A DNA stretch of 57,434 nt, taken from contig CAZUIQ010000003.1 of NCBI GenBank assembly GCA_964620085.1, forward strand, positions 16,912 through 74,345, given 5' to 3'. This document shows positions 15,683 through 33,366 of this stretch, piece by piece. The position numbers and the translations under genes are program-made. The notes below the pieces were generated by a model. That model was given only the letters and a program-made list of their open reading frames with translations, searched no databases and was not told the DNA's origin. This DNA is from an uncultured Candidatus Saccharibacteria bacterium. GTDB taxonomy: Bacteria > Patescibacteriota > Minisyncoccia > Phycocordibacterales > UBA1006. The first letter of the stretch is position 1. Every line of letters begins with the position of its first letter.

Positions 15683-17185
15683 TTATAATGTTGTTGCTCC
15701 ACACGAATTATTCAACAATCCTCGTGTAATAGGTCCTACCATTCCATCAGCATCAGTCTTCAAAAAGATTTGCATGCGCTTGATAGCGCTATCAGTAATA
15801 GGTCCAAGGATTCCATCAACAGTCCCTGCATTAAATCCAAGTCGGTTCAAGTGATCCTGTAAAATTTTTACTTCGGTTACGATTGCTTGAGTATACGGAT
15901 GATAGCTACCATTTTGCGCTCCTGTTCGCAGATTCTGCGTAAGCAGCTGATTTGCAGAACATATTCCTTCCTCGCCAAGTGATGGAGCAGTTGATGGGTT
16001 CGTCGTAGATGGCGCATCATTGGCAAGCGTGATGCCCATACTTGCTAAATATGCAGGCGATGCCATTCCGCTCACTGATGTGCGGCGACGTGTTGGTGTA
16101 GGATCTGGTTCAGGGTCTTCTGTTGGTGCAGCGGTAGTAAAATTCCATGCGGTACTCGAAGAAATTCCTGGATACGTATTTCCTACATTGTCTTCAAAAG
16201 CTCCTTCGGAAATAAGGACATAGTATTCTGTTCCTTCTTCAAAATCCGCAGTTGGATTAATAGTCATAACATCGTCTGCTTTGGTAACTTGCAGAGACGT
16301 AACATCAATCGTTTCAACAAGAGAATCATCATCTGCTTTGTAAATTGAAACGGTTCCCGTTGCAGGAATTACTTCCGCGGTGCTAAACGTCATTTCTAAA
16401 TTACTATCCACTGCAACATCGCTTGCATTATCAGTAGGACTCAGGGTTGCACTAATGGTTCCCAGTGATTCGTTCGAGTTTTGATTTGCTTCCTCTGAAG
16501 TGATAGCTCTGCTATAAATACGAACGTCTTTTACATCTCCCTTGAACCATCCGTGATTATTATCGCAACCTGGTGCGTTTACTCCGGCAAATACATACAC
16601 ATCCTGGTCAGCTGCAGTAAAGTTGCTCATAGGTGCAGAACTTACCAATGCTCCGTTTACATATAATTCCATTTCTTGAGTTTCTGGGCTCCAGGTATTT
16701 GCAATGCTGTACCATTCCCCTGGTGTAGCTACAGTGGGGTCAAGTGCGGTCACCGGTCCATCATTCCAACCAATGGCACGGAAATGACCATCTTCAACAT
16801 GTAACATGGCAATACACCATCCGCTTCCACCTGCTCCACTTGAAATATGAATAATGTTTCCATTTTCCTCGGCATCGGGAAGGCGTACTGATGCTGATAG
16901 TGTATATCCTTGATCAGAAACTCCCATAGAGTCACTGAGTGGCGAATTCGTTCGTGCGTAATCATTAATTCCGTCAAAGGTAAGTCCTCCTTCTGGAATC
17001 CATGTTGGTCCACCCGTTAATGTTCCTGGATATCCTGAAGTAGTTCCCACATCGGTTCCAGTTCCTTCATCAAAGGGCCAGTAGAATTTTAGAGTTGGAT
17101 CAACGGCATAAGCAGTAAATGAATTACCTATCACTAATGCGGTTACTAAAAATAACGAGAAAATAACGCGTGTGCTTTTGATCAT
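15683..17185 (-). CDS. secreted LamG (concanavalin-like) / Ig-like / peptidoglycan-binding domain protein
   Basis: Signal peptide. The LamG-type region ends ...WFKGDVKDVRIYSRAIT. An Ig-like segment reads LSPTDNASDVAVDSNLEMTF...YYVLISEGAFED. A PEPDPTP linker precedes the PG_binding_1-type C-terminus VKILQDHLNRLGFNAGTVDGILGPITDSAIKRMQ. Confidence 0.8.
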   Translation of the reverse strand: MIKSTRVIFSLFLVTALVIGNSFTAYAVDPTLKFYWPFDEGTGTDVGTTSGYPGTLTGGPTWIPEGGLTFDGINDYARTNSPLSDSMGVSDQGYTLSASVRLPDAEENGNIIHISSGAGGSGWCIAMLHVEDGHFRAIGWNDGPVTALDPTVATPGEWYSIANTWSPETQEMELYVNGALVSSAPMSNFTAADQDVYVFAGVNAPGCDNNHGWFKGDVKDVRIYSRAITSEEANQNSNESLGTISATLSPTDNASDVAVDSNLEMTFSTAEVIPATGTVSIYKADDDSLVETIDVTSLQVTKADDVMTINPTADFEEGTEYYVLISEGAFEDNVGNTYPGISSSTAWNFTTAAPTEDPEPDPTPTRRRTSVSGMASPAYLASMGITLANDAPSTTNPSTAPSLGEEGICSANQLLTQNLRTGAQNGSYHPYTQAIVTEVKILQDHLNRLGFNAGTVDGILGPITDSAIKRMQIFLKTDADGMVGPITRGLLNNSCGATTL

Positions 17186-17234: not shown

Positions 17235-17477
17235 TTACAAAGTGTTTTTCGAATTTTCTTCAAGCGCCATTTGATGCTGTACTGTCGCAATATAGAGCTC
17301 TTCTACTTTCAATCTTGCCCAAGGCGTTTTGCGCAAGAATATGAGGCTCGATTTAATACTTGGATCAGTTGTAAAACACTTAATCTTGATATCTTGACCC
17401 AATGTTTCCCATCCGTAATACGCCACAAGTTCGTTGAGGATGTTTTCGAGGGTTTTGTTTTGGAGTGGGTTGGGCAT
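17235..17477 (-). CDS. DUF2132 (VF530-like) small protein
   Basis: LVAYYGWETLGQDIKIKCFTTDPSIKSSLIFLRKTPWARLKVEELY. Confidence 0.8.
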   Translation of the reverse strand: MPNPLQNKTLENILNELVAYYGWETLGQDIKIKCFTTDPSIKSSLIFLRKTPWARLKVEELYIATVQHQMALEENSKNTL

Positions 17478-17479
17478 GG

Positions 17480-18046
17480 TTATTCTATATTGTCTTGGTG
17501 ATTAAGTTGATATTCCCAAATAAGTTTAATAAGTCTTTTTAATTCCAGGTCAAATTTCACAAGAGACAATTCTGGTTGAAGGTGAATTCTTTTACGTAAA
17601 TTAAACTTTGCATGAACCACAAACTCATGCCAGTTTTTCAATTCGAGTCTGAATATTTCCAGTTGAGACTGGACTATAGGAATATTTTCAAAGTAGATAT
17701 CCATTTTCGATTTTATCTTAATATTAAGTGCTGGTATCTCATCGTTTACCTTGTTAGAGAAATCAGGAAGTTCTAACTTTATATCATTTTCAAAAAAATC
17801 TCTATCAGATCGATCTGTTTTAATATAGGTATGAGCAATACGATCAATAATTAGTAAAACATAATGACTCTTCTCTTGTAAAAGAATGAGATCATCAATA
17901 ATGTCTTTCTTAATCTCAGTATCACGATCTATGTCTTTCTGTTTAGAATATTCAGTTGTTGCAAGATATGCAGCAAGAATTACCCCTGCAATAGCAGCGA
18001 AAGTAGCATTATTTGTTATTTGGTATAGATAATTACAATCAAGCAT
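17480..18046 (-). CDS. hypothetical protein with one N-terminal TM helix (188 aa)
   Basis: TFAAIAGVILAAYLATT followed by a helical, charged body. It is divergent from the RT locus. The sequence is AT-rich. Confidence 0.5.
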   Translation of the reverse strand: MLDCNYLYQITNNATFAAIAGVILAAYLATTEYSKQKDIDRDTEIKKDIIDDLILLQEKSHYVLLIIDRIAHTYIKTDRSDRDFFENDIKLELPDFSNKVNDEIPALNIKIKSKMDIYFENIPIVQSQLEIFRLELKNWHEFVVHAKFNLRKRIHLQPELSLVKFDLELKRLIKLIWEYQLNHQDNIE

Positions 18047-18266: not shown

Positions 18267-18294
18267 TTGTTAAAAAATCAAAACTGTTTATAAT
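18267..18294 (+). promoter_or_regulatory. sigma70-type promoter in the RT upstream region
   Basis: TTGTTA at 18267..18272, a 16-nt spacer, then TATAAT at 18289..18294. Confidence 0.5.
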
Positions 18295-18299
18295 GTCTG

Positions 18300-18757
18300 T
18301 GTGGAATTTATTTTCTGCAGATGAGTTATCATCTTGAACTTTGACATGAACGAATAGACCAGCACCAAGCGATTTTTGGGTACGAAAGTATCAGGTAGTA
18401 ATACCTTTATCGGGGCATGTGGGGGTGATGATTATCACCTAAAGGATTTGTAATTCGCTCAATGAATACAATACCTAATCCGCATTGATATACAGTATTA
18501 ATTTATACTATCCCGGAGCACCAATCGATAGACATGTTAAAGTCATTAAAAAGTCGTTTGGTGCATCCGAGTATGTTTAAAAAGCGTATTAAGGAGATCA
18601 TTTCTCAACCTGAAAAGGTTCAGGCATGGTTGCATATTGTTTTTACAATTGCAAAGGTTGTTCATAAATTCTTTTAATTTATGAACTCTATTCATAATGT
18701 ATTATTGTTGCTCTTTGCCACGAAATTATTTTGGTTGCAAAGAATAACAATAAAAAC
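18300..18757 (+). ncRNA. candidate RT-associated structured non-coding leader RNA (unclassified)
   Basis: No ORF of 60 aa or more. Multiple hairpins include GGTAC-GAAA-GTATC, AGGTA-GTAA-TACCT, GGTGAT-gatt-ATCACC, CCTGAA-aagg-TTCAGG and GTTCATAAA-N9-TTTATGAAC. A 14-bp imperfect stem spans 18704..18749, and 18341..18350 pairs at long range with 18533..18542. Confidence 0.3.
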
Positions 18758-19696
18758 ATGTTCAAGTACAACACAGCCCCCGCGGTATTTACAGAGAAGA
18801 GTTTTCTTTTCTTAATCAGGACAAAGAAAAAAGAATTCCGAGAAATGTTGAAAAACAAAGGTAATTTTTATTCGAAAGAAAAAGTTTTTAAAAAGAACGG
18901 CATAGATTTTCGCGAGATTTACAGACCGAAAGCTGATTTGAAGTTGCTCTTGAAAAAAGTAAACAAAAAGTATCTTTCCGGATTTAATTTCCCATCGTTT
19001 GTGCACTGTGGACCTGCAAAAAAATCTATCGTGACGGCTGCAAAGGGCCATGAAAAGTTTAATCATCATATATCACTGGACATAATAGCGTTTTTTGATC
19101 GAGTCACCAAAGATACGGTTGAAAAGACGCTCCGCGAACGAGGTGTGAAAAAAAACGTCATAAAAACACTGACTGATTTAGTTGTGGAAGACAACCGGCT
19201 CCCGCAAGGATTTCCTACGAGTCCATTATTGTCTGCAATGGTTATCAGCTGTGCACTCAAAAGTTTTTGCAATATGTTTCCAAGGGAAAATATATTGTTA
19301 TCTGTGTACGCAGATGATTTGCTTTTATCTTCCGAAGATTTGAAGCTCCTAAAGAGTGCGGAGGAGTACATAAAAGAGAAATTATCTCTCCTAGGATTGG
19401 TGCTTAATGATAGTAAAAAGATTGCAGGGAAAAAAGGAAGTAGGTTTACATGGCTTGGTCTTCAGATACATCCCTGGATTAATCTACCGAGAAAAAATCT
19501 ACAAGATTTGCAGAAGAAGGCTCACTTATATCGTACGAAGAAGATTATCCCAAACGATTTCAAACGTGATAAAAACAAGAAAACAAAAACAAAGACTCAG
19601 TGGAAGGAATCAATGAGAGGTAAAATTACTTTCGCAAGATACATAAATGGAAACAATAAGTTGATCAAAAAAACGGAGCGCTTATTAGGAAATTAA
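18758..19696 (+). CDS. compact stand-alone reverse transcriptase, retron-like (about 312 aa)
   Basis: RT motifs HISLDIIAFFDRV (A), RLPQGFPTSPLLSAMV (B'), VYADDLLLS (C), LGLVLNDSKK (D) and FTWLGLQI (E). A retron-like SIVTAAKGH element precedes motif A. The track start is a TTG at 18731 and the first ATG is at 18758. Confidence 0.85.
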   Translation: MFKYNTAPAVFTEKSFLFLIRTKKKEFREMLKNKGNFYSKEKVFKKNGIDFREIYRPKADLKLLLKKVNKKYLSGFNFPSFVHCGPAKKSIVTAAKGHEKFNHHISLDIIAFFDRVTKDTVEKTLRERGVKKNVIKTLTDLVVEDNRLPQGFPTSPLLSAMVISCALKSFCNMFPRENILLSVYADDLLLSSEDLKLLKSAEEYIKEKLSLLGLVLNDSKKIAGKKGSRFTWLGLQIHPWINLPRKNLQDLQKKAHLYRTKKIIPNDFKRDKNKKTKTKTQWKESMRGKITFARYINGNNKLIKKTERLLGN

Positions 19697-19757: not shown

Positions 19758-20507
19758 TTATTTCTGAAACACAAACAAATGTTCGTGCATTATTAACAAA
19801 AAGTTCGCTTCTTTTGATTTATTTACCCAAAACCCAGTCGCCTTGCAATTAAACTGTCGTTTAATAATATCTTCTTTTAATTGAAACCCTGCATCAAGAA
19901 ATTTTTGCATAACTTTATATGCAAGAGGTTGATACATTTTATTTCTTCGAGTATCACCAATCAAAACTGCACAGAATTTTCCAGGTTTTAAAACTCGATA
20001 CAGTTCCCCTGCAACCTTCCCCATTTCGTCTGCAAATTTATCAATATTATGAATCCCTGAAATATCCTCAGGGATTTTTCCGTCACTGTATTTAATAATA
20101 TCTGCGTACGGTGGATGAGTAAGAATGAAATCAATACTGTCAGGTTCGGCTTTTTTCAAGTCTCGAGCATCTCGTTTTAAAACTTTCTGCCATGACGTAT
20201 TATCAACTTTAAATTTCAAGGACTCTTTCGTTCGTTCAAGAGCTATGTCGTTTACATCAGAACAGATAATGTTTCTATTTAAAATCTTTGCTTCAATGGC
20301 AGTTGTCCCTCCGCCAATCATTGGATCAAGTAAAATATCACCTTCTTTTGAATATCTCAAAATCAAGTTACGAACAACTTCTGGTGCCCAATTCCCTCGC
20401 CAGTCAGATTTATGGGTCGCCCAATTCCCCCTACGAGGAAAAGCCCAGACAGTGGTGCACTCTAGGTCGAATTCTTCGGGATGAAGTTTTAGTTCGTTTT
20501 TACTCAT
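19758..20507 (-). CDS. DNA methyltransferase (N4/N6 family), last gene of the RM operon
   Basis: AdoMet motif LLDPMIGGGTTAIEA lies upstream of catalytic motif ILTHPPYADII. An N-terminal TVWAFPRRGNWATH segment is typical of the N4/N6 MTase domain. Confidence 0.85.
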   Translation of the reverse strand: MSKNELKLHPEEFDLECTTVWAFPRRGNWATHKSDWRGNWAPEVVRNLILRYSKEGDILLDPMIGGGTTAIEAKILNRNIICSDVNDIALERTKESLKFKVDNTSWQKVLKRDARDLKKAEPDSIDFILTHPPYADIIKYSDGKIPEDISGIHNIDKFADEMGKVAGELYRVLKPGKFCAVLIGDTRRNKMYQPLAYKVMQKFLDAGFQLKEDIIKRQFNCKATGFWVNKSKEANFLLIMHEHLFVFQK

Positions 20508-20514
20508 TTTTAAA

Positions 20515-21372
20515 TTACCAAGTTAAAGTATCTAGTACATTATTTTCAAGCATGGATAGATTGAAAACGTAGTCATTATGGTTGTATGTTTCCTCGAGTG
20601 GTCTTTTTGTTGTATGCCAACCTAATCCATCGGTTACCCAAATAAAATCAATATTTTGTTCTTTTAGTTCATTATGTAAACTTCGAAACTCCCCGCAGAC
20701 AGCTTTTAGTTTTGAACCTCCTCCATTATAAAAGTTTGCTTCAAATAATTTAATCCTGTTGCTTTTGGGGTTGTATACAGCAAAATCAAAACTGCGACTA
20801 GATTTATCCACGCGAATATTTATACCCCAACGGTCATGAATTTTCTTTGCATTGGCCTGGGATAAATATTCTAAGCCGTGTTTGTTTGAAAAATCTGATA
20901 TGAAAACCTCTGTTATTTTCTCCATTAATTTACCTCCGCGATTCTTCCTTCCATTACTGTCGAGCCCTACTTCTACTCCAATGACATAGTCTACAAGGTT
21001 TTTAATTCCATCCTCTTTGAACAATTTAATTAACCCAGACTTTTCAATAAATTCGAACCATGCTTCTGGCGATTTTTCATTTGCGGTGAAATTATAAAAT
21101 TCTGATTCTTTGGTTTCTATATCAAAAACCTCGAGATTATTTTCTCGTATTGCAAGTAGTACAGGCAATGCTTTGATAATATCAGAATTAGTTGAATAGA
21201 GTCTTTTAAACTCATCCTTTAGGTTTTGTTTACCTAATAAGAAGTTAAGCTTGTTTAGTGTAATTTCTAATTCTGAACTATTAGAGAAAACTTTTTTCCA
21301 GTTCACAAAATAGTCCCAGGTCTTGATGGAGTTTTTTAGGGTCGATATTAAGTTATTAAAATCTTTTGTCAT
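20515..21372 (-). CDS. dpnB: type II restriction endonuclease, DpnII/MboI family (GATC)
   Basis: From memory, it resembles R.DpnII along its whole length: LVDYVIGVEVGLDSNGRKNRGG, FEANFYNGGGSKLKA and WVTDGLGW. Confidence 0.9.
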   Translation of the reverse strand: MTKDFNNLISTLKNSIKTWDYFVNWKKVFSNSSELEITLNKLNFLLGKQNLKDEFKRLYSTNSDIIKALPVLLAIRENNLEVFDIETKESEFYNFTANEKSPEAWFEFIEKSGLIKLFKEDGIKNLVDYVIGVEVGLDSNGRKNRGGKLMEKITEVFISDFSNKHGLEYLSQANAKKIHDRWGINIRVDKSSRSFDFAVYNPKSNRIKLFEANFYNGGGSKLKAVCGEFRSLHNELKEQNIDFIWVTDGLGWHTTKRPLEETYNHNDYVFNLSMLENNVLDTLTW

Positions 21373-22979
21373 AATTTTTTCTTAACATTCTGCCAGGTTT
21401 GATTAGTTTTGGTAAATACCTTGTTTTCGTTTAGGTCAGGATTTGCTAAAATCTGCTTCTTATAATAATCATTAAATAGTGCGTAGGTTCTGTTGAATTC
21501 GGTAGTATTTTTTGAATCTAAATGAAATAGTGCCGCTATTAAATGTAGATCCATATGTCTTAATTTAGATTTTTTGCTTTTTGATTTCTCTTTTTTAATT
21601 GCACCCTCTACAAATAGTCCAATACTGCAAAGCTTCCAAATATCTCCCAGTCTTGATCTAATCTTGTTTTCTATTAACACAAATTTGCCTTTCGGACTCG
21701 TCATATCAAATAGAAACTGCCTGTCGTTTTTAGCCGAAGAAGGTTCTTCAAGAAATGCTGCGTACACCCATTGAAATAGCCTGGTTGATGTTATTGTATC
21801 CTTACCATCGCTATGACCTTTCTTTCTTTTATATTTTATTTGCCCTTTACTTATTTTGTTAATATAGTTTTCTAAGAAAATATTGATTTCCTCATTTGAT
21901 ACCAAGTCTTCCGAACTGACTGCGTTTTGAGTGTTTGAGGTCTCACAAATTTTTTTGGAAAGTTTTGTATCTGCCTCAATTATTTTACAAATTATTGAAC
22001 CCTTTTTAATTTGTGACTTTGTTACAATTCCTTTATTGTAAGCCTCAAAGAGTCCAAATAAGGTTTGTGCCCCGTTAACAATTTGTGGATTTGTTATAGT
22101 AACCATTGTTGCATTTGGGGTCAGCGGACTTATCTTGGTACATGTTATGGTTATGCCGTTATGAAATATCCAAAAGTTATTTGGATTATGACGCAAAGTT
22201 GCTACTATTTTTTCAGAGAAAGCCTTCTTATTTAAATGACCTCGTATGTTTGAACTTATAATTTTTGTGCCATATTTCTGAATGAACTGCTTGAAAAGAG
22301 TCTCTATTGATATTTTTGCAATAATCTCTTTAGATCCAGACTGGTTTTTTGCAAGTAGATCAGATTCGATTGCAAGGGTAATATTACCAGTCACTGTTTC
22401 TTGATTAAATTTTTCAAGGAATAGTGTGTTTATGTCTTTAAAAATCACCTCTATCCCCATTTCTTCTTCTATGCTCCTAATTAATTTTTTTATCTTGGCA
22501 TTTCCATGACTATCATTCATCAATTCGATTTTTGTGAACGGGTGTTTTTTTCTTACAATAAAAAGTCGAACCTTGCGACGTGTCTGTTTTTTTAGCTTTT
22601 TTATATTTTTTTTAATAGCTTCGTCTCCTATAAAATCAGTGTTGCCTCGTTTTAAATATTTTTCTAAAGAATTTTTTATTTTATCGATATCTTTGTCTGA
22701 AATTCCGCCGGTGCCAAATTTAAATTCAAAAATATCAACTGACGTTTTATTTCCAAAGTAAAAGGCATCAATGCCCCCGTCGCACGCAGAGTCGGTGATT
22801 ATATTTGATAACTCTGTTAAGGAGAAATTTTTATTATAAAACAGTATTAAAAAGGTAATAATAAATTGATATGACTCTAAACTAGAACCTGGTCCATATG
22901 TATCTAAAGATTTTTTAAAAAGTATACTGGGTAAACTCCCCAATTCATTTTTATGTAATTCAAAGAGGTCTGTGTACAT
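21369..22979 (-). CDS. AIPR-family abortive-infection protein (536 aa)
   Basis: N-terminal ACDGGIDAFYF and central IVNGAQTL motifs are typical of AIPR. Its stop overlaps the endonuclease start by 4 nt (ATGA). Confidence 0.65.
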   Translation of the reverse strand: MYTDLFELHKNELGSLPSILFKKSLDTYGPGSSLESYQFIITFLILFYNKNFSLTELSNIITDSACDGGIDAFYFGNKTSVDIFEFKFGTGGISDKDIDKIKNSLEKYLKRGNTDFIGDEAIKKNIKKLKKQTRRKVRLFIVRKKHPFTKIELMNDSHGNAKIKKLIRSIEEEMGIEVIFKDINTLFLEKFNQETVTGNITLAIESDLLAKNQSGSKEIIAKISIETLFKQFIQKYGTKIISSNIRGHLNKKAFSEKIVATLRHNPNNFWIFHNGITITCTKISPLTPNATMVTITNPQIVNGAQTLFGLFEAYNKGIVTKSQIKKGSIICKIIEADTKLSKKICETSNTQNAVSSEDLVSNEEINIFLENYINKISKGQIKYKRKKGHSDGKDTITSTRLFQWVYAAFLEEPSSAKNDRQFLFDMTSPKGKFVLIENKIRSRLGDIWKLCSIGLFVEGAIKKEKSKSKKSKLRHMDLHLIAALFHLDSKNTTEFNRTYALFNDYYKKQILANPDLNENKVFTKTNQTWQNVKKKL

Positions 22980-22985
22980 AATTCT

Positions 22986-23957
22986 CTAGTAGTTGGTTAC
23001 CACAACTTCCAGCACCTTCCCTCGACCACTTCCCTTCGAATTAATCGCCCTCCCCGCCTCAACTTTATGAATCTGAATTTTCTTATCTTTAATCTCAGAA
23101 TAAATCTTGTTAATAAATGGCGCATCAGAGTTTGAAAGCATCACAAGGCAACCTCGTTTATGAAGCTCTACAAAAATATCTCGTAATTCAATTTGCTCCT
23201 TGTCCAAGAATGCGTCCTTGGTATATGAAGTAAATGAAGCGGTTTTACTCATTGGGTAATAAGGAGGATCAAAATAAATAAAATCTCCTTTCTTAGCTTT
23301 TTTCAAAACTTCTTTATAGTCCTGATGTTTTATCGTTACATTTTTTAACACCTTAGAAACTCGTTCTAAATTAACCTCATCACAAATAAGAGGGTTTTTA
23401 TTTTGTCCAAAAGGAACATTAAAACCACCAGACTTGTTTACTCGATACAAACCATTAAAACAAGTTCTATTAAGATAAATAAATCGTGATGCTATTTCTA
23501 CATCAGAAAGTTTTGAGATATCTTTTGACCGGATTTTTAGGAAATACTCTTTGTTTACTTTGTGTTTCTTAAGAGATTTAATAAGTGATTCAACATCATT
23601 TTTAATAACATTATATGTTGTCACTAATTCATTGTTCATATCAGACAAAACCGCATGTTTAGGCATGAGATCAAAGAAAACAGCACCGCCACCTACGAAT
23701 GGTTCAAAATAGGTATTCTTTGTAGGATCAAAAAGTTCTGGTGGAAACAAGTTTCTTAATCGAAACTGTGTCAAAAGCTGACGTTTACCCCCAACCCATT
23801 TTACAAAAGGTTTCGGTTTCTCGGAGATAATTTTTTCAGCGTCTTTAAACCAATTATTCTTACTCAAAACACGAGAAATAACCATTTGCGCATAAATGTT
23901 ATTTATGGCAAATTTCTGCTCAATTTCATGAACTTTAGAAATGTCTTGCTTATTCAT
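22986..23957 (-). CDS. dpnM: Dam-type N6-adenine DNA methyltransferase, DpnM-like (GATC)
   Basis: FVKWVGGKRQLL, FEPFVGGGAVFFDL, FIYFDPPYYP and the C-terminal SGRGKVLEVVVTNY. The N-terminus extends about 35 aa beyond DpnM, so an internal start is possible. Confidence 0.9.
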   Translation of the reverse strand: MNKQDISKVHEIEQKFAINNIYAQMVISRVLSKNNWFKDAEKIISEKPKPFVKWVGGKRQLLTQFRLRNLFPPELFDPTKNTYFEPFVGGGAVFFDLMPKHAVLSDMNNELVTTYNVIKNDVESLIKSLKKHKVNKEYFLKIRSKDISKLSDVEIASRFIYLNRTCFNGLYRVNKSGGFNVPFGQNKNPLICDEVNLERVSKVLKNVTIKHQDYKEVLKKAKKGDFIYFDPPYYPMSKTASFTSYTKDAFLDKEQIELRDIFVELHKRGCLVMLSNSDAPFINKIYSEIKDKKIQIHKVEAGRAINSKGSGRGKVLEVVVTNY

Positions 23958-29886: not shown

Positions 29887-32800
29887 TTATCTTTTTAAAC
29901 CATCACTTCCACACGAATTATTAATTAATTCTCGAGTAATCGGTCCTACATATCCATCAGGTGTTGTTTTCAAATACATCTGCATGCGTTTAATCGCACC
30001 AGTTGAAAGCGGTCCAAGGATTCCATCTTCTGGTCCTGAATTAAATCCAAGTCGGTTCAAGTGAGCTTGCAAGATTTTTGCTTCAGATACAATTCCTTGA
30101 GTATATGAATTGTATACCCCATTTCTACTCGGTGCTCTTAGGTTTTGTGTAAGCGTTTGAGTTGCGGTACATACACCTTTGTTACCTAGAGATGGCGAAG
30201 TCGAGTTTGTAGATGAATTTGTAAGCGTGATTCCTTGTTGTGCAAGGAATGTTGATGATGTATACCCACCGACACTTCGTTTGCGCGGTGTTGGTTCTGG
30301 CTCTGGTTCAGGCTCTTCATCACTACACGGCAATGTCGTAAATGAGAGTTCGTTTTCAGCACTCACAAGACCTTCCTCGCCGAAACTAATATACCCAATC
30401 GCAATATAGTAATATGTTGTATTACATGTCAGATCCGTGAGTCCAAGATAGTTATCTGGGGTCATGAAAGCATTTAGATCAAAGGTATACACCCCTGTTT
30501 CCTCATTAACGGTTCCAAAATCATCAGCAGGACCCATGAGTAATGCACCACCCAGCTCAAGAGGCTCTTCTGAAAATGCAAATCCGAGTGTTCCTGGTCC
30601 GAAACTGCCTGAAATAACTTGTCCTCGTAATACCGCTGATCGTTCAGTAATATCAGTTGCTGATAGTGAAAAAAGCTCAGGCTCTCCCTCTTCAAAAGAT
30701 TCCCACATGAAATGAGGATAACGACTATTGTTACTATTCATCTGCCAAATAGTATCAAAATCCCAATCGGCATCAGTATAGGTAGACTGTGTTCTTGCTT
30801 GCGCAGTAGTTAATTCAGTAAGCCCCGAACATGCACCCGTGTGACATGCATCTTCTTGTTCAGTTGATTCGCCATCCCAGAATGAATCAGTGAACAACGT
30901 ATCAGTTGCATCATTTGCAAATCCACCCACAAGAGTTCCTGCGTCGGTAAGAATCACCAATCCACGAGCGTATGCATTCGTAACGTTTCCAGAGTTTATT
31001 GTTCCTGCAAATGATCCTACCTGATCATTACCACTTACTGATCCACCTGAATACACATTGATAAATGTTGAACCGTAGCCTTCTCCGATAAATCCTCCGA
31101 TCACATTATTCCCCGTAACGTCTCCATGTGCGGAAGCTTGGGTAAATGTAGATCCTGGACCCTCACACCCATCGAATCCTACGAATCCTCCGGCGTTTCC
31201 ATTTCCTGCCGTGACATTACCTGATGCTGAAACACGTAGGAACGTACTTTCGCACAAGCTTTGTCCTGCGAACCCTCCAATGTTGCCTCCAACAGAATCA
31301 ACATCTCCTATCGCAGTACTGTCTATAATATCACTGTTAAATATCGCTCCACCAAAACCTCCAACACTTTCATTTCCTGAAACATTTCCCGTAGCATAAC
31401 TATTGGTAATGGTTGCTTCATAGGTATATCCTACGAACCCTCCGGTATTATTACCTTCTGCTGAAACACTTCCGGTTGCACTCGCATCGTCAATAGTAGA
31501 ACTTGCAATATATCCCGCAAATCCTCCGGTATAGTTTCCTGATTTACTAATATCTGGTATATACTCGTCTTCATTACTATTTGATACAACATCTCCAGTT
31601 GCATCAACACCACTGATTTGTGAGTTATTAATTTCTCCGAATGCACCTCCGATATATTCTCCTCCATCAATGTCTGCACTGGTTTCACCAGTAGTCACGG
31701 TACTGGTATCAACTCCCCCGATCAGCCCTCCAATAATATTTCCTGATCCGTGCACATTTCCTTCGATAACGGTCAAGTTTTCTGCGGTACTCTCACTCAT
31801 CATTCGCCCTGCGATACCTCCTCCATAATATGCGAGATACGCGCGCACCATTCCTTGGTTGTTCGTAAGATTTTGTAAAGTAACCCCATTTCCTTGCCCT
31901 AGAAAACCTCCCGTATTTGCACCTCCAACAATACGCGCGTTGCTTAGCGTAATATTTTTAATCGTTGCATTATTCGCATATCCAATGAGTCCTCCTGATT
32001 CGCGACCTTTTCTAAAAATCCACAGGTTTGAAATAGTATATCCTTGTCCATCAAGACTTCCCGTGAATCCTGTTCCTTCGTTGTAATAATCAACTTGTCC
32101 GATAGGTTCAAACCCAAAATACCCATTGTTTTCTACAATAGTATATTCATCAGGGATAAGTTCTCCTCCAACTACCCCGTCCACCCATTCTTCTTCATTA
32201 CCATTCCATGTAGCAGTAGCCGCACAGTCAATAATACTGCTCGTCAAAATATAGTGTGCATCAAGATCCTCATTAATATTTTGTAATTGCTGACAAGTTG
32301 TAATCTGATACGGATCAAGTTCGGTCCCATCACCTCCAGCAAACAACGGCTCCGGTGTTGGTACATCATATGCTGATTTTGCAAAACGCACATCATCAAT
32401 TACTGCATTAGCAAAAAAAGTTGGAGATGAGCCAAATGCACCAATCAAAAATGCTGCAGTGGAGTCAGTATGTTCTGGTACATCATTAAGCGTGTCTGCG
32501 ACACCGTCATTTACAATAATTGAGTTTGTATTTGTTTCCGCATTATGAGTAGCTACAATGTAATACCATGTTCCTACCTCAGGTGAACCTAACTGATCAG
32601 CTTTTACAAAATAGTTATCTTCTGATGAATAGGTAGAAAATACAAATCGATCAAACGTATTTTCAAAATAGAGCGCATATTCACCACCCGTTCCATACTT
32701 AGAAACAAACACCTGGGTTCCTGTTTTGTCATTTAATTTTACCCACGCAGAAACAGTAAAGCTCGTTTCACCCCCGGTACTGAGCGACGCATTATCTGTA

Positions 32801-33366
32801 ATTGAGAGATAATCATTAGTTGCAATACCTACTCCATCGTTAAATGGAGACGTAAGAACTGACGGACTTCCTGTTACGGTCAGATCATTATCACCTACAC
32901 TATCGACACGGGTTCCGCTCGGTTCGTTTAATGTCCAGTGACTCACGGTATTATCAAAATAGCAAGGTGATGTTGTGAAGGTATCATCAGCACTATAGCC
33001 ATCAAGTAATCCATTATTTCGCACTCTAAAACGATAATGGTACGTAGTATCACAAGTCAGTCCTGTGATAGGTACATCAAAATTCCCTGGAATGGTGAGT
33101 TCGTTGAGGTTATATCGCTGAACTTCGCTTCCATACGTATTATCTACTCCATATTCAACCCAGATACCAATTACTTCAGCAATTCCTTCGTCGGTGATCT
33201 CACCTGTTGGTGTTGCTGATGTGGGAAGAATGCTCTGGGGAAAAACGTTTACTACAACTGGTTCACCGACCGCAAAAACATGAGAGGCTCCAGAGAGAAT
33301 TCCGACCGCTAATAATACGAATAAAGAAAACGTACGCACGGTACGAATGATACGTTGGGGTTGCAT
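29887..33366 (-). CDS. large secreted surface protein: FN3-like, LamG, GLUG-motif repeats, FN3-like, peptidoglycan-binding domain
   Basis: Signal peptide. LamG-type region ...FTVSAWVKLND...AVIDDVRFAKSAY. At least 12 repeats with GG(F/L/I)xG (GGLIGY, GGFLGQ, GGFAGY, GGFVGY, GGFGGA, GGFAGQ, GGFIGE and others). PEPEPEPTP linker. C-terminus AKILQAHLNRLGFNSGPEDGILGPLSTGAIKRMQ. Confidence 0.8.
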   Translation of the reverse strand: MQPQRIIRTVRTFSLFVLLAVGILSGASHVFAVGEPVVVNVFPQSILPTSATPTGEITDEGIAEVIGIWVEYGVDNTYGSEVQRYNLNELTIPGNFDVPITGLTCDTTYHYRFRVRNNGLLDGYSADDTFTTSPCYFDNTVSHWTLNEPSGTRVDSVGDNDLTVTGSPSVLTSPFNDGVGIATNDYLSITDNASLSTGGETSFTVSAWVKLNDKTGTQVFVSKYGTGGEYALYFENTFDRFVFSTYSSEDNYFVKADQLGSPEVGTWYYIVATHNAETNTNSIIVNDGVADTLNDVPEHTDSTAAFLIGAFGSSPTFFANAVIDDVRFAKSAYDVPTPEPLFAGGDGTELDPYQITTCQQLQNINEDLDAHYILTSSIIDCAATATWNGNEEEWVDGVVGGELIPDEYTIVENNGYFGFEPIGQVDYYNEGTGFTGSLDGQGYTISNLWIFRKGRESGGLIGYANNATIKNITLSNARIVGGANTGGFLGQGNGVTLQNLTNNQGMVRAYLAYYGGGIAGRMMSESTAENLTVIEGNVHGSGNIIGGLIGGVDTSTVTTGETSADIDGGEYIGGAFGEINNSQISGVDATGDVVSNSNEDEYIPDISKSGNYTGGFAGYIASSTIDDASATGSVSAEGNNTGGFVGYTYEATITNSYATGNVSGNESVGGFGGAIFNSDIIDSTAIGDVDSVGGNIGGFAGQSLCESTFLRVSASGNVTAGNGNAGGFVGFDGCEGPGSTFTQASAHGDVTGNNVIGGFIGEGYGSTFINVYSGGSVSGNDQVGSFAGTINSGNVTNAYARGLVILTDAGTLVGGFANDATDTLFTDSFWDGESTEQEDACHTGACSGLTELTTAQARTQSTYTDADWDFDTIWQMNSNNSRYPHFMWESFEEGEPELFSLSATDITERSAVLRGQVISGSFGPGTLGFAFSEEPLELGGALLMGPADDFGTVNEETGVYTFDLNAFMTPDNYLGLTDLTCNTTYYYIAIGYISFGEEGLVSAENELSFTTLPCSDEEPEPEPEPTPRKRSVGGYTSSTFLAQQGITLTNSSTNSTSPSLGNKGVCTATQTLTQNLRAPSRNGVYNSYTQGIVSEAKILQAHLNRLGFNSGPEDGILGPLSTGAIKRMQMYLKTTPDGYVGPITRELINNSCGSDGLKR

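Follow-up and report, generated by a model that had tools for sequence, protein, structure and literature searches.

A retron-type locus without a helix-turn-helix gene in Candidatus Saccharibacteria, probably a minimal variant of the Type VI hybrid-RNA design

Retrons of Type VI offer the closest described comparison for the locus considered here, a reverse transcriptase (RT) gene and its structured leader in a stretch of 57,434 nucleotides (hereafter the window) from an uncultured Candidatus Saccharibacteria bacterium (assembly GCA_964620085.1, contig CAZUIQ010000003.1, positions 16,912 to 74,345 of the forward strand). The Type VI operon has the order non-coding RNA (ncRNA), small protein (SP), helix-turn-helix (HTH) protein and RT, and in both Retron-Vpa2 and Retron-Sen3 the HTH protein represses reverse transcription and neutralises the SP. 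A Cro/C1-type HTH gene lies between the SP and RT genes, or overlaps the RT gene, in 78% of Type VI entries. In Retron-Vpa2, a hybrid RNA (hyRNA) of ~470 nt combines the msr-msd with a translationally repressed SP toxin. The 3′ end of this hyRNA folds onto its first arm, conserved 7-nt direct repeats have been proposed to let the cDNA open the riboregulator, and the multicopy single-stranded DNA (msDNA) is absent at rest and required for translation of the SP (Zhang et al., 10.1101/2025.10.22.683967). In Retron-Sen3, which belongs to the cl2075 Type VI lineage, the inverted repeats IR1 and IR2 flank the SP, with IR2 just past the stop codon; the coding sequence (CDS) of the SP is under structural selection, single-stranded DNA (ssDNA) is made constitutively and the SP is controlled post-translationally (Garcia-Rodriguez et al., 10.64898/2026.04.27.721009).

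The leader of the window extends over 463 nt (18295–18757, plus strand) and directly precedes the RT gene. It was compared with related loci to give a set of 14 distinct loci, whose RTs are 40–55% identical; about 40 relatives of the RT, at 40–55% identity, exist among 5.8 billion clustered proteins. The same layout was found in all 14 loci, starting with a −10 element, a pair of 5′ hairpins and a tail that is invariant and single-stranded, followed by the inverted repeats a1/a2, two GNRA-capped hairpins, a variable arm, a hairpin formed by a1′ and a2, a small open reading frame (ORF) and a long hairpin that abuts the RT start. The order and spacing of leader, small ORF and RT are fixed throughout, while the flanking genes differ at every locus, and an all-against-all comparison of ORFs of at least 45 aa within ~4 kb identified only the RT and the small ORF as conserved. 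Nucleotide identity among the leaders is higher than expected for proteins that are ~50% identical. The locus is probably a minimal retron-type defence module of two genes and one hybrid RNA, an HTH-less variant of the Type VI hybrid-RNA design with a miniature SP. It has a conserved promoter, helices with covariation, a coding ORF, an RT with retron affinity and no other conserved gene; its template, trigger, toxicity and defence role would follow by analogy with the described systems. The original prediction, made from the window's sequence, had left open whether the leader acts as RNA, as a micro-protein or as both. The comparison of related loci points to both, through compensation within helices and codon periodicity within the ORF.

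The leader folds far more stably than its composition would suggest, with a minimum free energy (MFE) of −141.5 kcal/mol compared with −97.8 ± 6.0 in 100 dinucleotide shuffles (z = −7.3, with 0/100 shuffles as good). Its 5′ part contains the following features.

18289–18294, plus strand: −10 hexamer TATAAT; a TATAAT-like hexamer occurs in 14/14 loci, 17–26 nt 5′ of H2
18300–18319, plus strand: H1, 5′-terminal hairpin with a GTGGAA / TTCTGC stem, identified by eye and in the MFE fold
18319–18334, plus strand: H2, hairpin AGATGA-GTTA-TCATCT; 100% of cells paired, 3/6 pairs compensatory
18336–18348, plus strand: near-invariant tail GAACTTTGACATG, which supplies the 5′ strand of P1, a long-range pairing; invariant among the closest loci

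It had been predicted that the leader has its own promoter, with TTGTTA at 18267 and TATAAT at 18289. Both hexamers are present, and the −10 is kept in 14/14 loci, but the possible −35 (18267–18272) is not conserved across them. The −10 hexamer is preceded by TGn in 9/14 loci and is there an extended −10. A simple promoter scan alone was not enriched (7 sites against 7.6 expected). Since the −10 is conserved at the same position in all loci, a putative transcription start at ~18300 is well supported by conservation. H1 has 4–7 bp and a sequence that differs for each locus, and by eye it ends directly before CAG(A/G)TGAG in every one of them; it is out of register in the MAFFT alignment, and was assessed by eye rather than by pair statistics. 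In H2, compensation is evident in the series GATGA/TCATC, GGTGA/TCACC and GGCGG/CCGCC. Furthermore, CAGATGAGTTATCATCTTGAACTTTGACA is invariant among the closest loci.

The central part of the leader contains the elements that most resemble a retron ncRNA, together with the two strands of a long-range helix (LR) that ties the 3′ end of the small ORF to the 5′ part.

18352–18358, plus strand: LR-5′, GAATAGA, which pairs with 18687–18693 and is present in the MFE fold
18362–18377, plus strand: a1, 5′ inverted repeat GCACCAAGCGATTTTT, 16 nt, 88% complementary to a2 (18549–18564)
18379–18392, plus strand: H3, msr-like GNRA hairpin GGTAC-GAAA-GTATC; 96% paired, 4/5 pairs compensatory
18393–18406, plus strand: H4, msr-like hairpin AGGTA-GTAA-TACCT; 100% paired, 3/5 pairs compensatory
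18411–18512, plus strand: conserved G-rich motif CGGGGCATG.GGGG and variable arm, candidate msd template
18513–18569, plus strand: H6, formed by a1′ (18513–18528) and a2 (18549–18569); 91% paired, 10/14 pairs compensatory
18687–18693, plus strand: LR-3′, TCTATTC, which begins 10 nt past the SP stop codon

Pairs were counted on a trimmed alignment of the 14 leaders, with 500 shuffles, and with structures slid by 1–3 columns as a control. None of the 500 shuffles reached the observed values for H2, H3, H4 or H6, and the slid structures were ~40% paired. For example, the closing pair of H4 is A-U in seven loci and G-C in seven, and two more pairs are compensatory in one locus, L106. Covariation had been suggested as a check when the helices were first predicted, and compensatory changes support nearly every helix across the 14 loci. 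A direct check found all the predicted motifs in the sequence, at their expected positions or within 2 nt of them. These include the hairpins at 18379 and 18393 (H3 and H4), GGTGAT-gatt-ATCACC at 18424, CCTGAA-aagg-TTCAGG at 18609, a stem with the arms GTTCATAAA (18660) and TTTATGAAC (18678), and the long stem before the RT, whose arms TTGTTGCTCTTTGC and GCAAAGAATAACAA start at 18705 and 18737.

Long-range pairings were assessed by comparing the duplex energy of each strand with its partner from its own locus and with partners from other loci, using 5000 permutations. This approach was used because MAFFT misaligns the variable a1, leaving a1/a2 only 58% paired on its alignment. Own-locus partners were favoured for P1 (CTTTGACA:TGTCAAAG; own −11.6, cross −7.9 kcal/mol), for LR (−9.6 and −5.7), for a1:a2 (−16.1 and −9.3) and for a1′:a2 (−22.0 and −13.5), each with 0/5000 permutations as extreme, values that indicate co-variation and are not exact probabilities, since the permutations ignore phylogeny. 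Two control pairings were flat in the same test. In P1, compensation can also be seen by eye, with CTTTG/CAAAG replaced by CCTTG/..AAGG.

These results alter the assignment of the inverted repeats. The pairing of CTTTGACATG with CATGTTAAAG had been proposed as an a1/a2-like arrangement, and the long-range pairing itself is real; it is P1, and each strand follows its own partner across loci. CATGTTAAAG was correctly placed at 18533, but CTTTGACATG lies at 18339–18348 rather than 18341–18350, and the retron-style a1/a2 pairing is a different one, between 18362–18377 and 18549–18564. This stronger pairing (16 nt, 88% complementary), which was identified with a repeat finder, had been missed, as had a1′ (18518–18528), a near-copy of a1 and alternative partner of a2, and the LR helix (18352–18358 with 18687–18693), within which lie both the ncRNA core and the small ORF. 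The H6 loop contains the 3′ strand of P1 (18533–18542), making P1 a separate, pseudoknot-type contact. The two repeats a1 and a1′ compete for a2, and by eye a2 tends to have U opposite A in a1 and G in a1′, a pattern that suggests constraint at the level of RNA. H1–H4, a1/a2 and LR are all contained in the MFE fold of the window's leader alone, together with the two 3′ hairpins H7 and H8 described below.

The variable arm differs in length and sequence between loci, and in the window it includes the GGTGAT-gatt-ATCACC hairpin (18424–18439). It is a candidate template for reverse transcription on the analogy of SL3 in Retron-Sen3, which is likewise variable. A 7-nt motif, GG(G/A)GCA(T/C), occurs twice per leader in every locus, after H4 (18412–18418 in the window) and in the 5′ arm of H6 (18515–18521).

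Repeats around the variable arm are also relevant to a DRT2-like interpretation, in which the direct repeats a1 and a1′ would allow template jumping to generate concatemeric cDNA encoding a Neo-like repeat protein. A direct repeat of ~8–13 nt does flank a unit of ~156 nt in the window, and the original prediction had hinted at repetitive or concatemeric cDNA. However, no more than 6/14 loci have a repeat spacing divisible by 3, and no locus has a consistent open frame, the single stop-free frame being on the minus strand of one locus, L019. The RT matches the Drt2 model at 16 bits (E = 0.0045), compared with 120–140 bits for retron models. The hint is not supported, and we give this interpretation almost no weight.

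The small ORF begins shortly after a2 and overlaps a further hairpin.

18573–18677, plus strand: SP ORF MFKKRIKEIISQPEKVQAWLHIVFTIAKVVHKFF, 34 aa, candidate toxic effector; open in 14/14 loci
18660–18686, plus strand: H7, GTTCATAAATT / AATTTATGAAC, spanning the last codons and stop of the ORF; 11 bp, perfect in the window

An ORF of 47 codons had been predicted at 18534–18677. The frame is open and its last 34 codons are conserved, but the first 13 codons are not; the upstream ATG belongs to the P1 element, has no counterpart in L018 and opens onto a closed frame in L098. From the equivalent of ATG 18573, the ORF has 34–42 codons across the 14 loci, with length differences of whole codons and a stop 56–83 nt before the RT start. 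Pairwise differences at the three codon positions are 0.54/0.36/0.63 (position 3 minus position 2, permutation p < 5e-5), compared with a flat 0.38/0.41/0.37 in the non-coding 5′ domain as a control. The SP is coding. Its consensus is M..LKK.F..P(D/E)K(V/I)K.WLE(I/V)......II(K/R).IHYF.K, with a net charge of +3 to +7 across loci and a C-terminal segment that is both hydrophobic and amphipathic (mean Kyte–Doolittle hydropathy ~1, hydrophobic moment ~0.5). An AlphaFold2 model predicts a helix at residues 2–10, a break at Pro13 and a second helix at 13–33 (pLDDT 82). The SP has no match in Pfam, PADLOC or NCBIfam, and a profile search of the 5.8 billion proteins identified six unnamed homologues only, all on contigs that match those of this RT family in length. 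It is likely that the SP is a toxic effector.

The same region appears to be constrained as RNA. H7 is 77–80% paired across loci, with compensatory changes, and the CCTGAA-aagg-TTCAGG hairpin (18609–18624) inside the CDS is conserved by eye; with conserved hairpins within it, the region is both coding and structured. The end of a2 is 4–9 nt from the ATG of the small ORF in the window. In predicted ensembles, the 20 nt 5′ of the SP AUG have a mean pairing probability of 0.79, compared with 0.63 overall, and in 10/14 loci the AUG is paired as well (P > 0.5).

A small peptide under a fold of this type could also belong to a type I toxin-antitoxin (TA) module that happens to lie beside the RT, its mRNA regulated through fold-back structures of its own or through an antisense RNA, independently of reverse transcription. 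With its long-range 5′–3′ pairing and sequestered start, the mRNA of this cationic, amphipathic mini-peptide resembles hok-type mRNAs; as in hok/sok, a mini hydrophobic or amphipathic peptide is combined with long-range pairings of the mRNA that hide the translation start. The SP differs in its strict linkage to the RT, in that its homologues among 5.8 billion proteins are confined to contigs of the RT family and the order and spacing of leader, SP and RT never vary. Furthermore, no antisense RNA is evident here, the loci showed no conserved antisense promoter or gene, and the proposed activator is cDNA. A type I module is therefore very improbable.

The RT gene follows the second of the 3′ hairpins.

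18702–18753, plus strand: H8, long hairpin with a 24-nt arm; 92% paired, 13/16 pairs compensatory, 0/500 shuffles
18758–19696, plus strand: retron-type RT, 312 aa, with a YADD motif; Pfam RVT_1, 5e-20

H8 ends 4 nt from the RT ATG and carries a purine-rich tract resembling a Shine–Dalgarno (SD) sequence in its 3′ arm, within the covarying stem at most loci. The RT ATG lies in or beside the H8 stem in 6/14 loci. Such an arrangement might be expected of a cis-regulatory leader with an upstream ORF, whose sole role would be to adjust how strongly the RT is translated (for example, through terminating ribosomes that open H7, LR and H8), its peptide being functionless and the template and effector lying elsewhere. 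The position of the SD-like tract against the RT start would suit this explanation, as would the short distance from the ORF stop to the RT and the position of LR-3′ within reach of a terminating ribosome. A pure leader peptide, however, need not keep its sequence, and the SP is under purifying selection, with position 2 the most conserved and the motifs W-L-E-I and I-H-Y-F recurring. Nor is there another conserved gene or RNA nearby to serve as template or effector, and a1/a2 with msr-like hairpins are retron hallmarks. We regard a purely regulatory leader as decidedly unlikely; as part of the retron-type module that we favour, H8 may replace some of the control that is given elsewhere by the HTH protein.

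The affinity of the RT is with retrons. Its top PADLOC matches are all retron RTs (III-A 143 bits, VI 121, II-A 120 and XI 113, with RT_V at 69), and its best NCBIfam match is the retron St85 family, under that family's cut-off. When a profile of the RT family was compared with solved structures, the RT of Retron Ec86 was the best match (5e-29), followed by Kva2, Ec83 and Ec67. Region X has the sequence T-A-A-x-G-H, in which the H of the retron NAxxH motif is invariant, and region Y reads W-L-G aligned to V-T-G, with the G kept. As judged from these alignments, the two motifs are degenerate, with their most conserved residues kept. The nearest RTs outside the family (tblastn, 29–36% identity) have RT_VI as their best PADLOC model. 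Type VI RTs are placed in Mestre clade 3, alongside those of Types IV and V. A scan of GTDB genomes found distant RTs only (22–37% identity) and no family member, and an invariant 27-mer had no match in the viral contigs scanned. The NCBI protein for the RT has 283 aa and starts 29 codons 3′ of ATG 18758 (18758–18844); the longer start (M-x-W-x-Y) is where the alignment of homologues of 304–345 aa begins, which suggests that the deposited annotation is truncated.

In comparison with Retron-Vpa2, the locus shares an architecture in which one structured transcript of ~400–470 nt carries a retron ncRNA and an ORF for a small helical protein 5′ of the RT, a contiguity that we infer here. In both, inverted repeats fold the 3′ end onto the 5′ part, the small ORF has a sequestered start region, the RNA could be remodelled by cDNA through short, conserved direct repeats, and the SP has a hydrophobic C-terminal helix. 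The locus differs in the absence of an HTH gene between the SP and RT genes, in an SP of 34–42 aa compared with 55 aa in Vpa2, and in an RT that was not assignable to the Type VI clade by the tools used. The repeats also differ, being a1/a1′ together with GGGGCAT here, with a1′ in a stem and not a loop, and H8 gates the RT start at a position where the HTH gene would otherwise precede it. By analogy, the GG(G/A)GCA(T/C) repeats are candidate counterparts of the 7-nt repeats of Vpa2.

The likeness to Retron-Sen3 is in the closing of the ncRNA by inverted repeats, with the SP translation start within or beside the basal stem (a1/a2), in an internal arm with a non-conserved centre, and in an SP CDS under RNA structural constraint (the 18609–18624 hairpin and H7 here). 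LR is analogous to IR1/IR2, with LR-3′ as the counterpart of IR2; IR1 is part of SL3 in Sen3, however, and LR-5′ lies 5′ of a1 here. The SP of Sen3 is larger, at 79 aa, and has the HTH protein as its neutraliser, the hosts of the Sen3 lineage are Proteobacteria, and no similarity of the RNAs was found at the level of sequence. The counterparts here of the Type VI features are H1/H2, the variable arm, a1/a2 beside the SP start, LR, and H7 with the internal hairpins.

Sen3 is also the precedent for a different mode of action, that of a canonical retron TA system. The msDNA would then be constitutive, the RT–msDNA complex or the RT alone would act post-translationally to neutralise a constitutively produced SP, and disturbance of the msDNA by phage proteins would release the toxin, with the helices serving to tune expression. 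Most characterised retrons work in this way, and Sen3 itself combines constitutive ssDNA with post-translational control of its SP. A retron effector is commonly encoded between ncRNA and RT, for example rcaT in Retron-Sen2, and the RT of the window falls in the retron clade with the SP gene in just that position. The neutraliser of Sen3 is nevertheless the HTH protein, and the present loci lack it; pairing at the SP start region is above average, and the a1/a1′/a2 complementarity would have no obvious role in post-translational control. On this evidence, canonical TA control seems unlikely.

Canonical retrons such as Retron-Eco1 (Ec86) also provide the closest solved RT (5e-29), with the H of region X and the G of region Y kept, and have a1/a2 repeats followed by short msr-like hairpins 5′ of the RT. 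In the present family, region Y is W-L-G and not V-T-G, region X is T-A-A-x-G-H, no long msd hairpin is seen, and a 60-nt structured 5′ extension lies ahead of a1. The RNA fold includes the effector ORF, and the distance from a2 to the RT is ~190 nt.

For the HTH-less hybrid-RNA module that we consider probable, a mechanism can be proposed. The extended −10 promoter at 18289 would drive a transcript that begins with ~400 nt of hybrid RNA, made up of a retron-like ncRNA, the sequence coding for the SP and the LR clamp, which joins the ORF's 3′ end to the 5′ part. At rest, LR, a1/a2 (or H6 with P1) and a hairpin at the start codon would keep the SP poorly translated, since the 20 nt before its start lie in the a2 helix and the start codon itself is often in a hairpin. 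H8 would at the same time limit synthesis of the RT, with the SD-like tract and the start codon in or beside the hairpin. After the model for Retron-Vpa2, the trigger would be copying of the template arm by the RT to give a cDNA that is a2-like, being complementary to a1′ or to a GGGGCAT repeat. This cDNA could compete with a2 for a1 and a1′ and so free the SP translation start, and the released SP, a cationic amphipathic peptide, would arrest the infected cell.

Several observations weigh against this reading. The HTH gene is found in 0/14 loci; the gap between SP and RT is 56–83 nt, and comparison of neighbouring ORFs finds only the RT and the SP. Since the HTH protein represses the RT and neutralises the SP in both Vpa2 and Sen3, the published mechanism cannot transfer unchanged. 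The III-A model of PADLOC outscores the VI model for the RT (143 compared with 121 bits), and a rough neighbour-joining tree, built without reference sequences of Types III, IV and V, places the RT family on its own branch beside an RT_VI-like group. A covariance model of the 5′ domain (R1) matches every family member at 78–124 bits but finds nothing in Type VI-like or XI-like loci. No long msd-type hairpin is present, the folds of the variable arm being multi-branched and inconsistent between loci, and no unpaired, conserved branching G was identified in the leaders: the first G of H3 (18379) is the only invariant G past a1, and is paired in H3. Most loci have no clear SD sequence ahead of the SP, whose 34–42 aa compare with 55–79 aa in known SPs. 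Transcription, reverse transcription, the template segment, toxicity, the switch and phage defence are all proposed from sequence. The location of the locus inside a defence islet with a DpnII restriction–modification system and an AIPR protein is counted in favour of the reading.

Other searches addressed the identity of the RNA. Rfam gave only chance miRNA-like matches and one tRNA, for the leader at permissive thresholds and for the whole window at gathering thresholds, and the predicted ncRNA of a Levybacteria Type VI retron from a retron census showed no resemblance to the leader by eye. Among more distant, RT_VI-type loci used as controls, the canonical SP-HTH-RT order is visible in L004 and L027. 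In three others, L002, L076 and L093 (RTs of 294–301 aa, RT_VI 130–158 bits), no ATG-started ORF of HTH size occurs in the 900 nt 5′ of the RT, and L002 has no ORF of at least 28 aa there. These three may be another HTH-less group.

It is also possible, if more doubtful, that the family forms an independent retron lineage without an HTH gene, whose single RNA would serve as RT template, mini-toxin mRNA and translational gate for the RT, with a three-way a1/a1′/a2 switch flipped by cDNA.

Directly 3′ of the RT and convergent with it, the defence islet occupies 19758–23957 on the minus strand. It encodes an N6_N4 DNA methylase (19758–20507), a DpnII restriction endonuclease (20515–21372), the AIPR abortive-infection protein (21369–22979) and a D12-class, Dam-like methylase (22986–23957). 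Genes for D12 and N6_N4 methylases also adjoin the RT in L112. On the other side of the leader, an ORF of 188 aa that is divergent from it (17480–18046, minus strand; no Pfam match, PADLOC 2TM-effector E = 0.006) and a gene for a VF530 DNA-binding protein (17235–17477, minus strand) were considered as effector or HTH protein, and were dismissed for lack of conservation in the remaining 13 loci. In L099 (1–1141) and L109 (4961–6960), the same pair of mobile-element genes, for a REP_ORF2-G2P replication protein and a serine recombinase, lies within 2 kb of the RT module, which hints that the module is able to travel on a small integrative element. Elsewhere in the window, two proteins of 500 aa and 1159 aa (15683–17185 and 29887–33366, both minus strand) have both a lectin-like Laminin_G_3 domain and, at the C terminus, a peptidoglycan-binding domain, the larger having a GLUG motif as well. 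Together with a short PheT (592 aa), they suggest a host with a small genome that is possibly episymbiotic.

The hybrid-RNA design is known from preprints of 2025–2026; what is new is its HTH-less form with a mini-SP, on a small and previously unannotated RT lineage. Effector ORFs of 34 aa are mostly missed by gene callers, so that RTs of this type are filed as orphan ‘retron-type’ genes without an effector. A module of ~1.4 kb is also a compact combination of RT and RNA for engineering. Type VI retrons reverse the usual retron logic, in that cDNA switches the toxin on, and the two systems studied so far both depend on an HTH protein. If the independent-lineage interpretation is true, hybrid-RNA logic works without this protein, which is now held to be central, and should the RT really fall outside the Type VI clade, that logic would either predate the split between retron types or have arisen twice. 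The HTH-less family would be a natural minimal version of the system, and would show which parts of the mechanism are intrinsic to the RNA.

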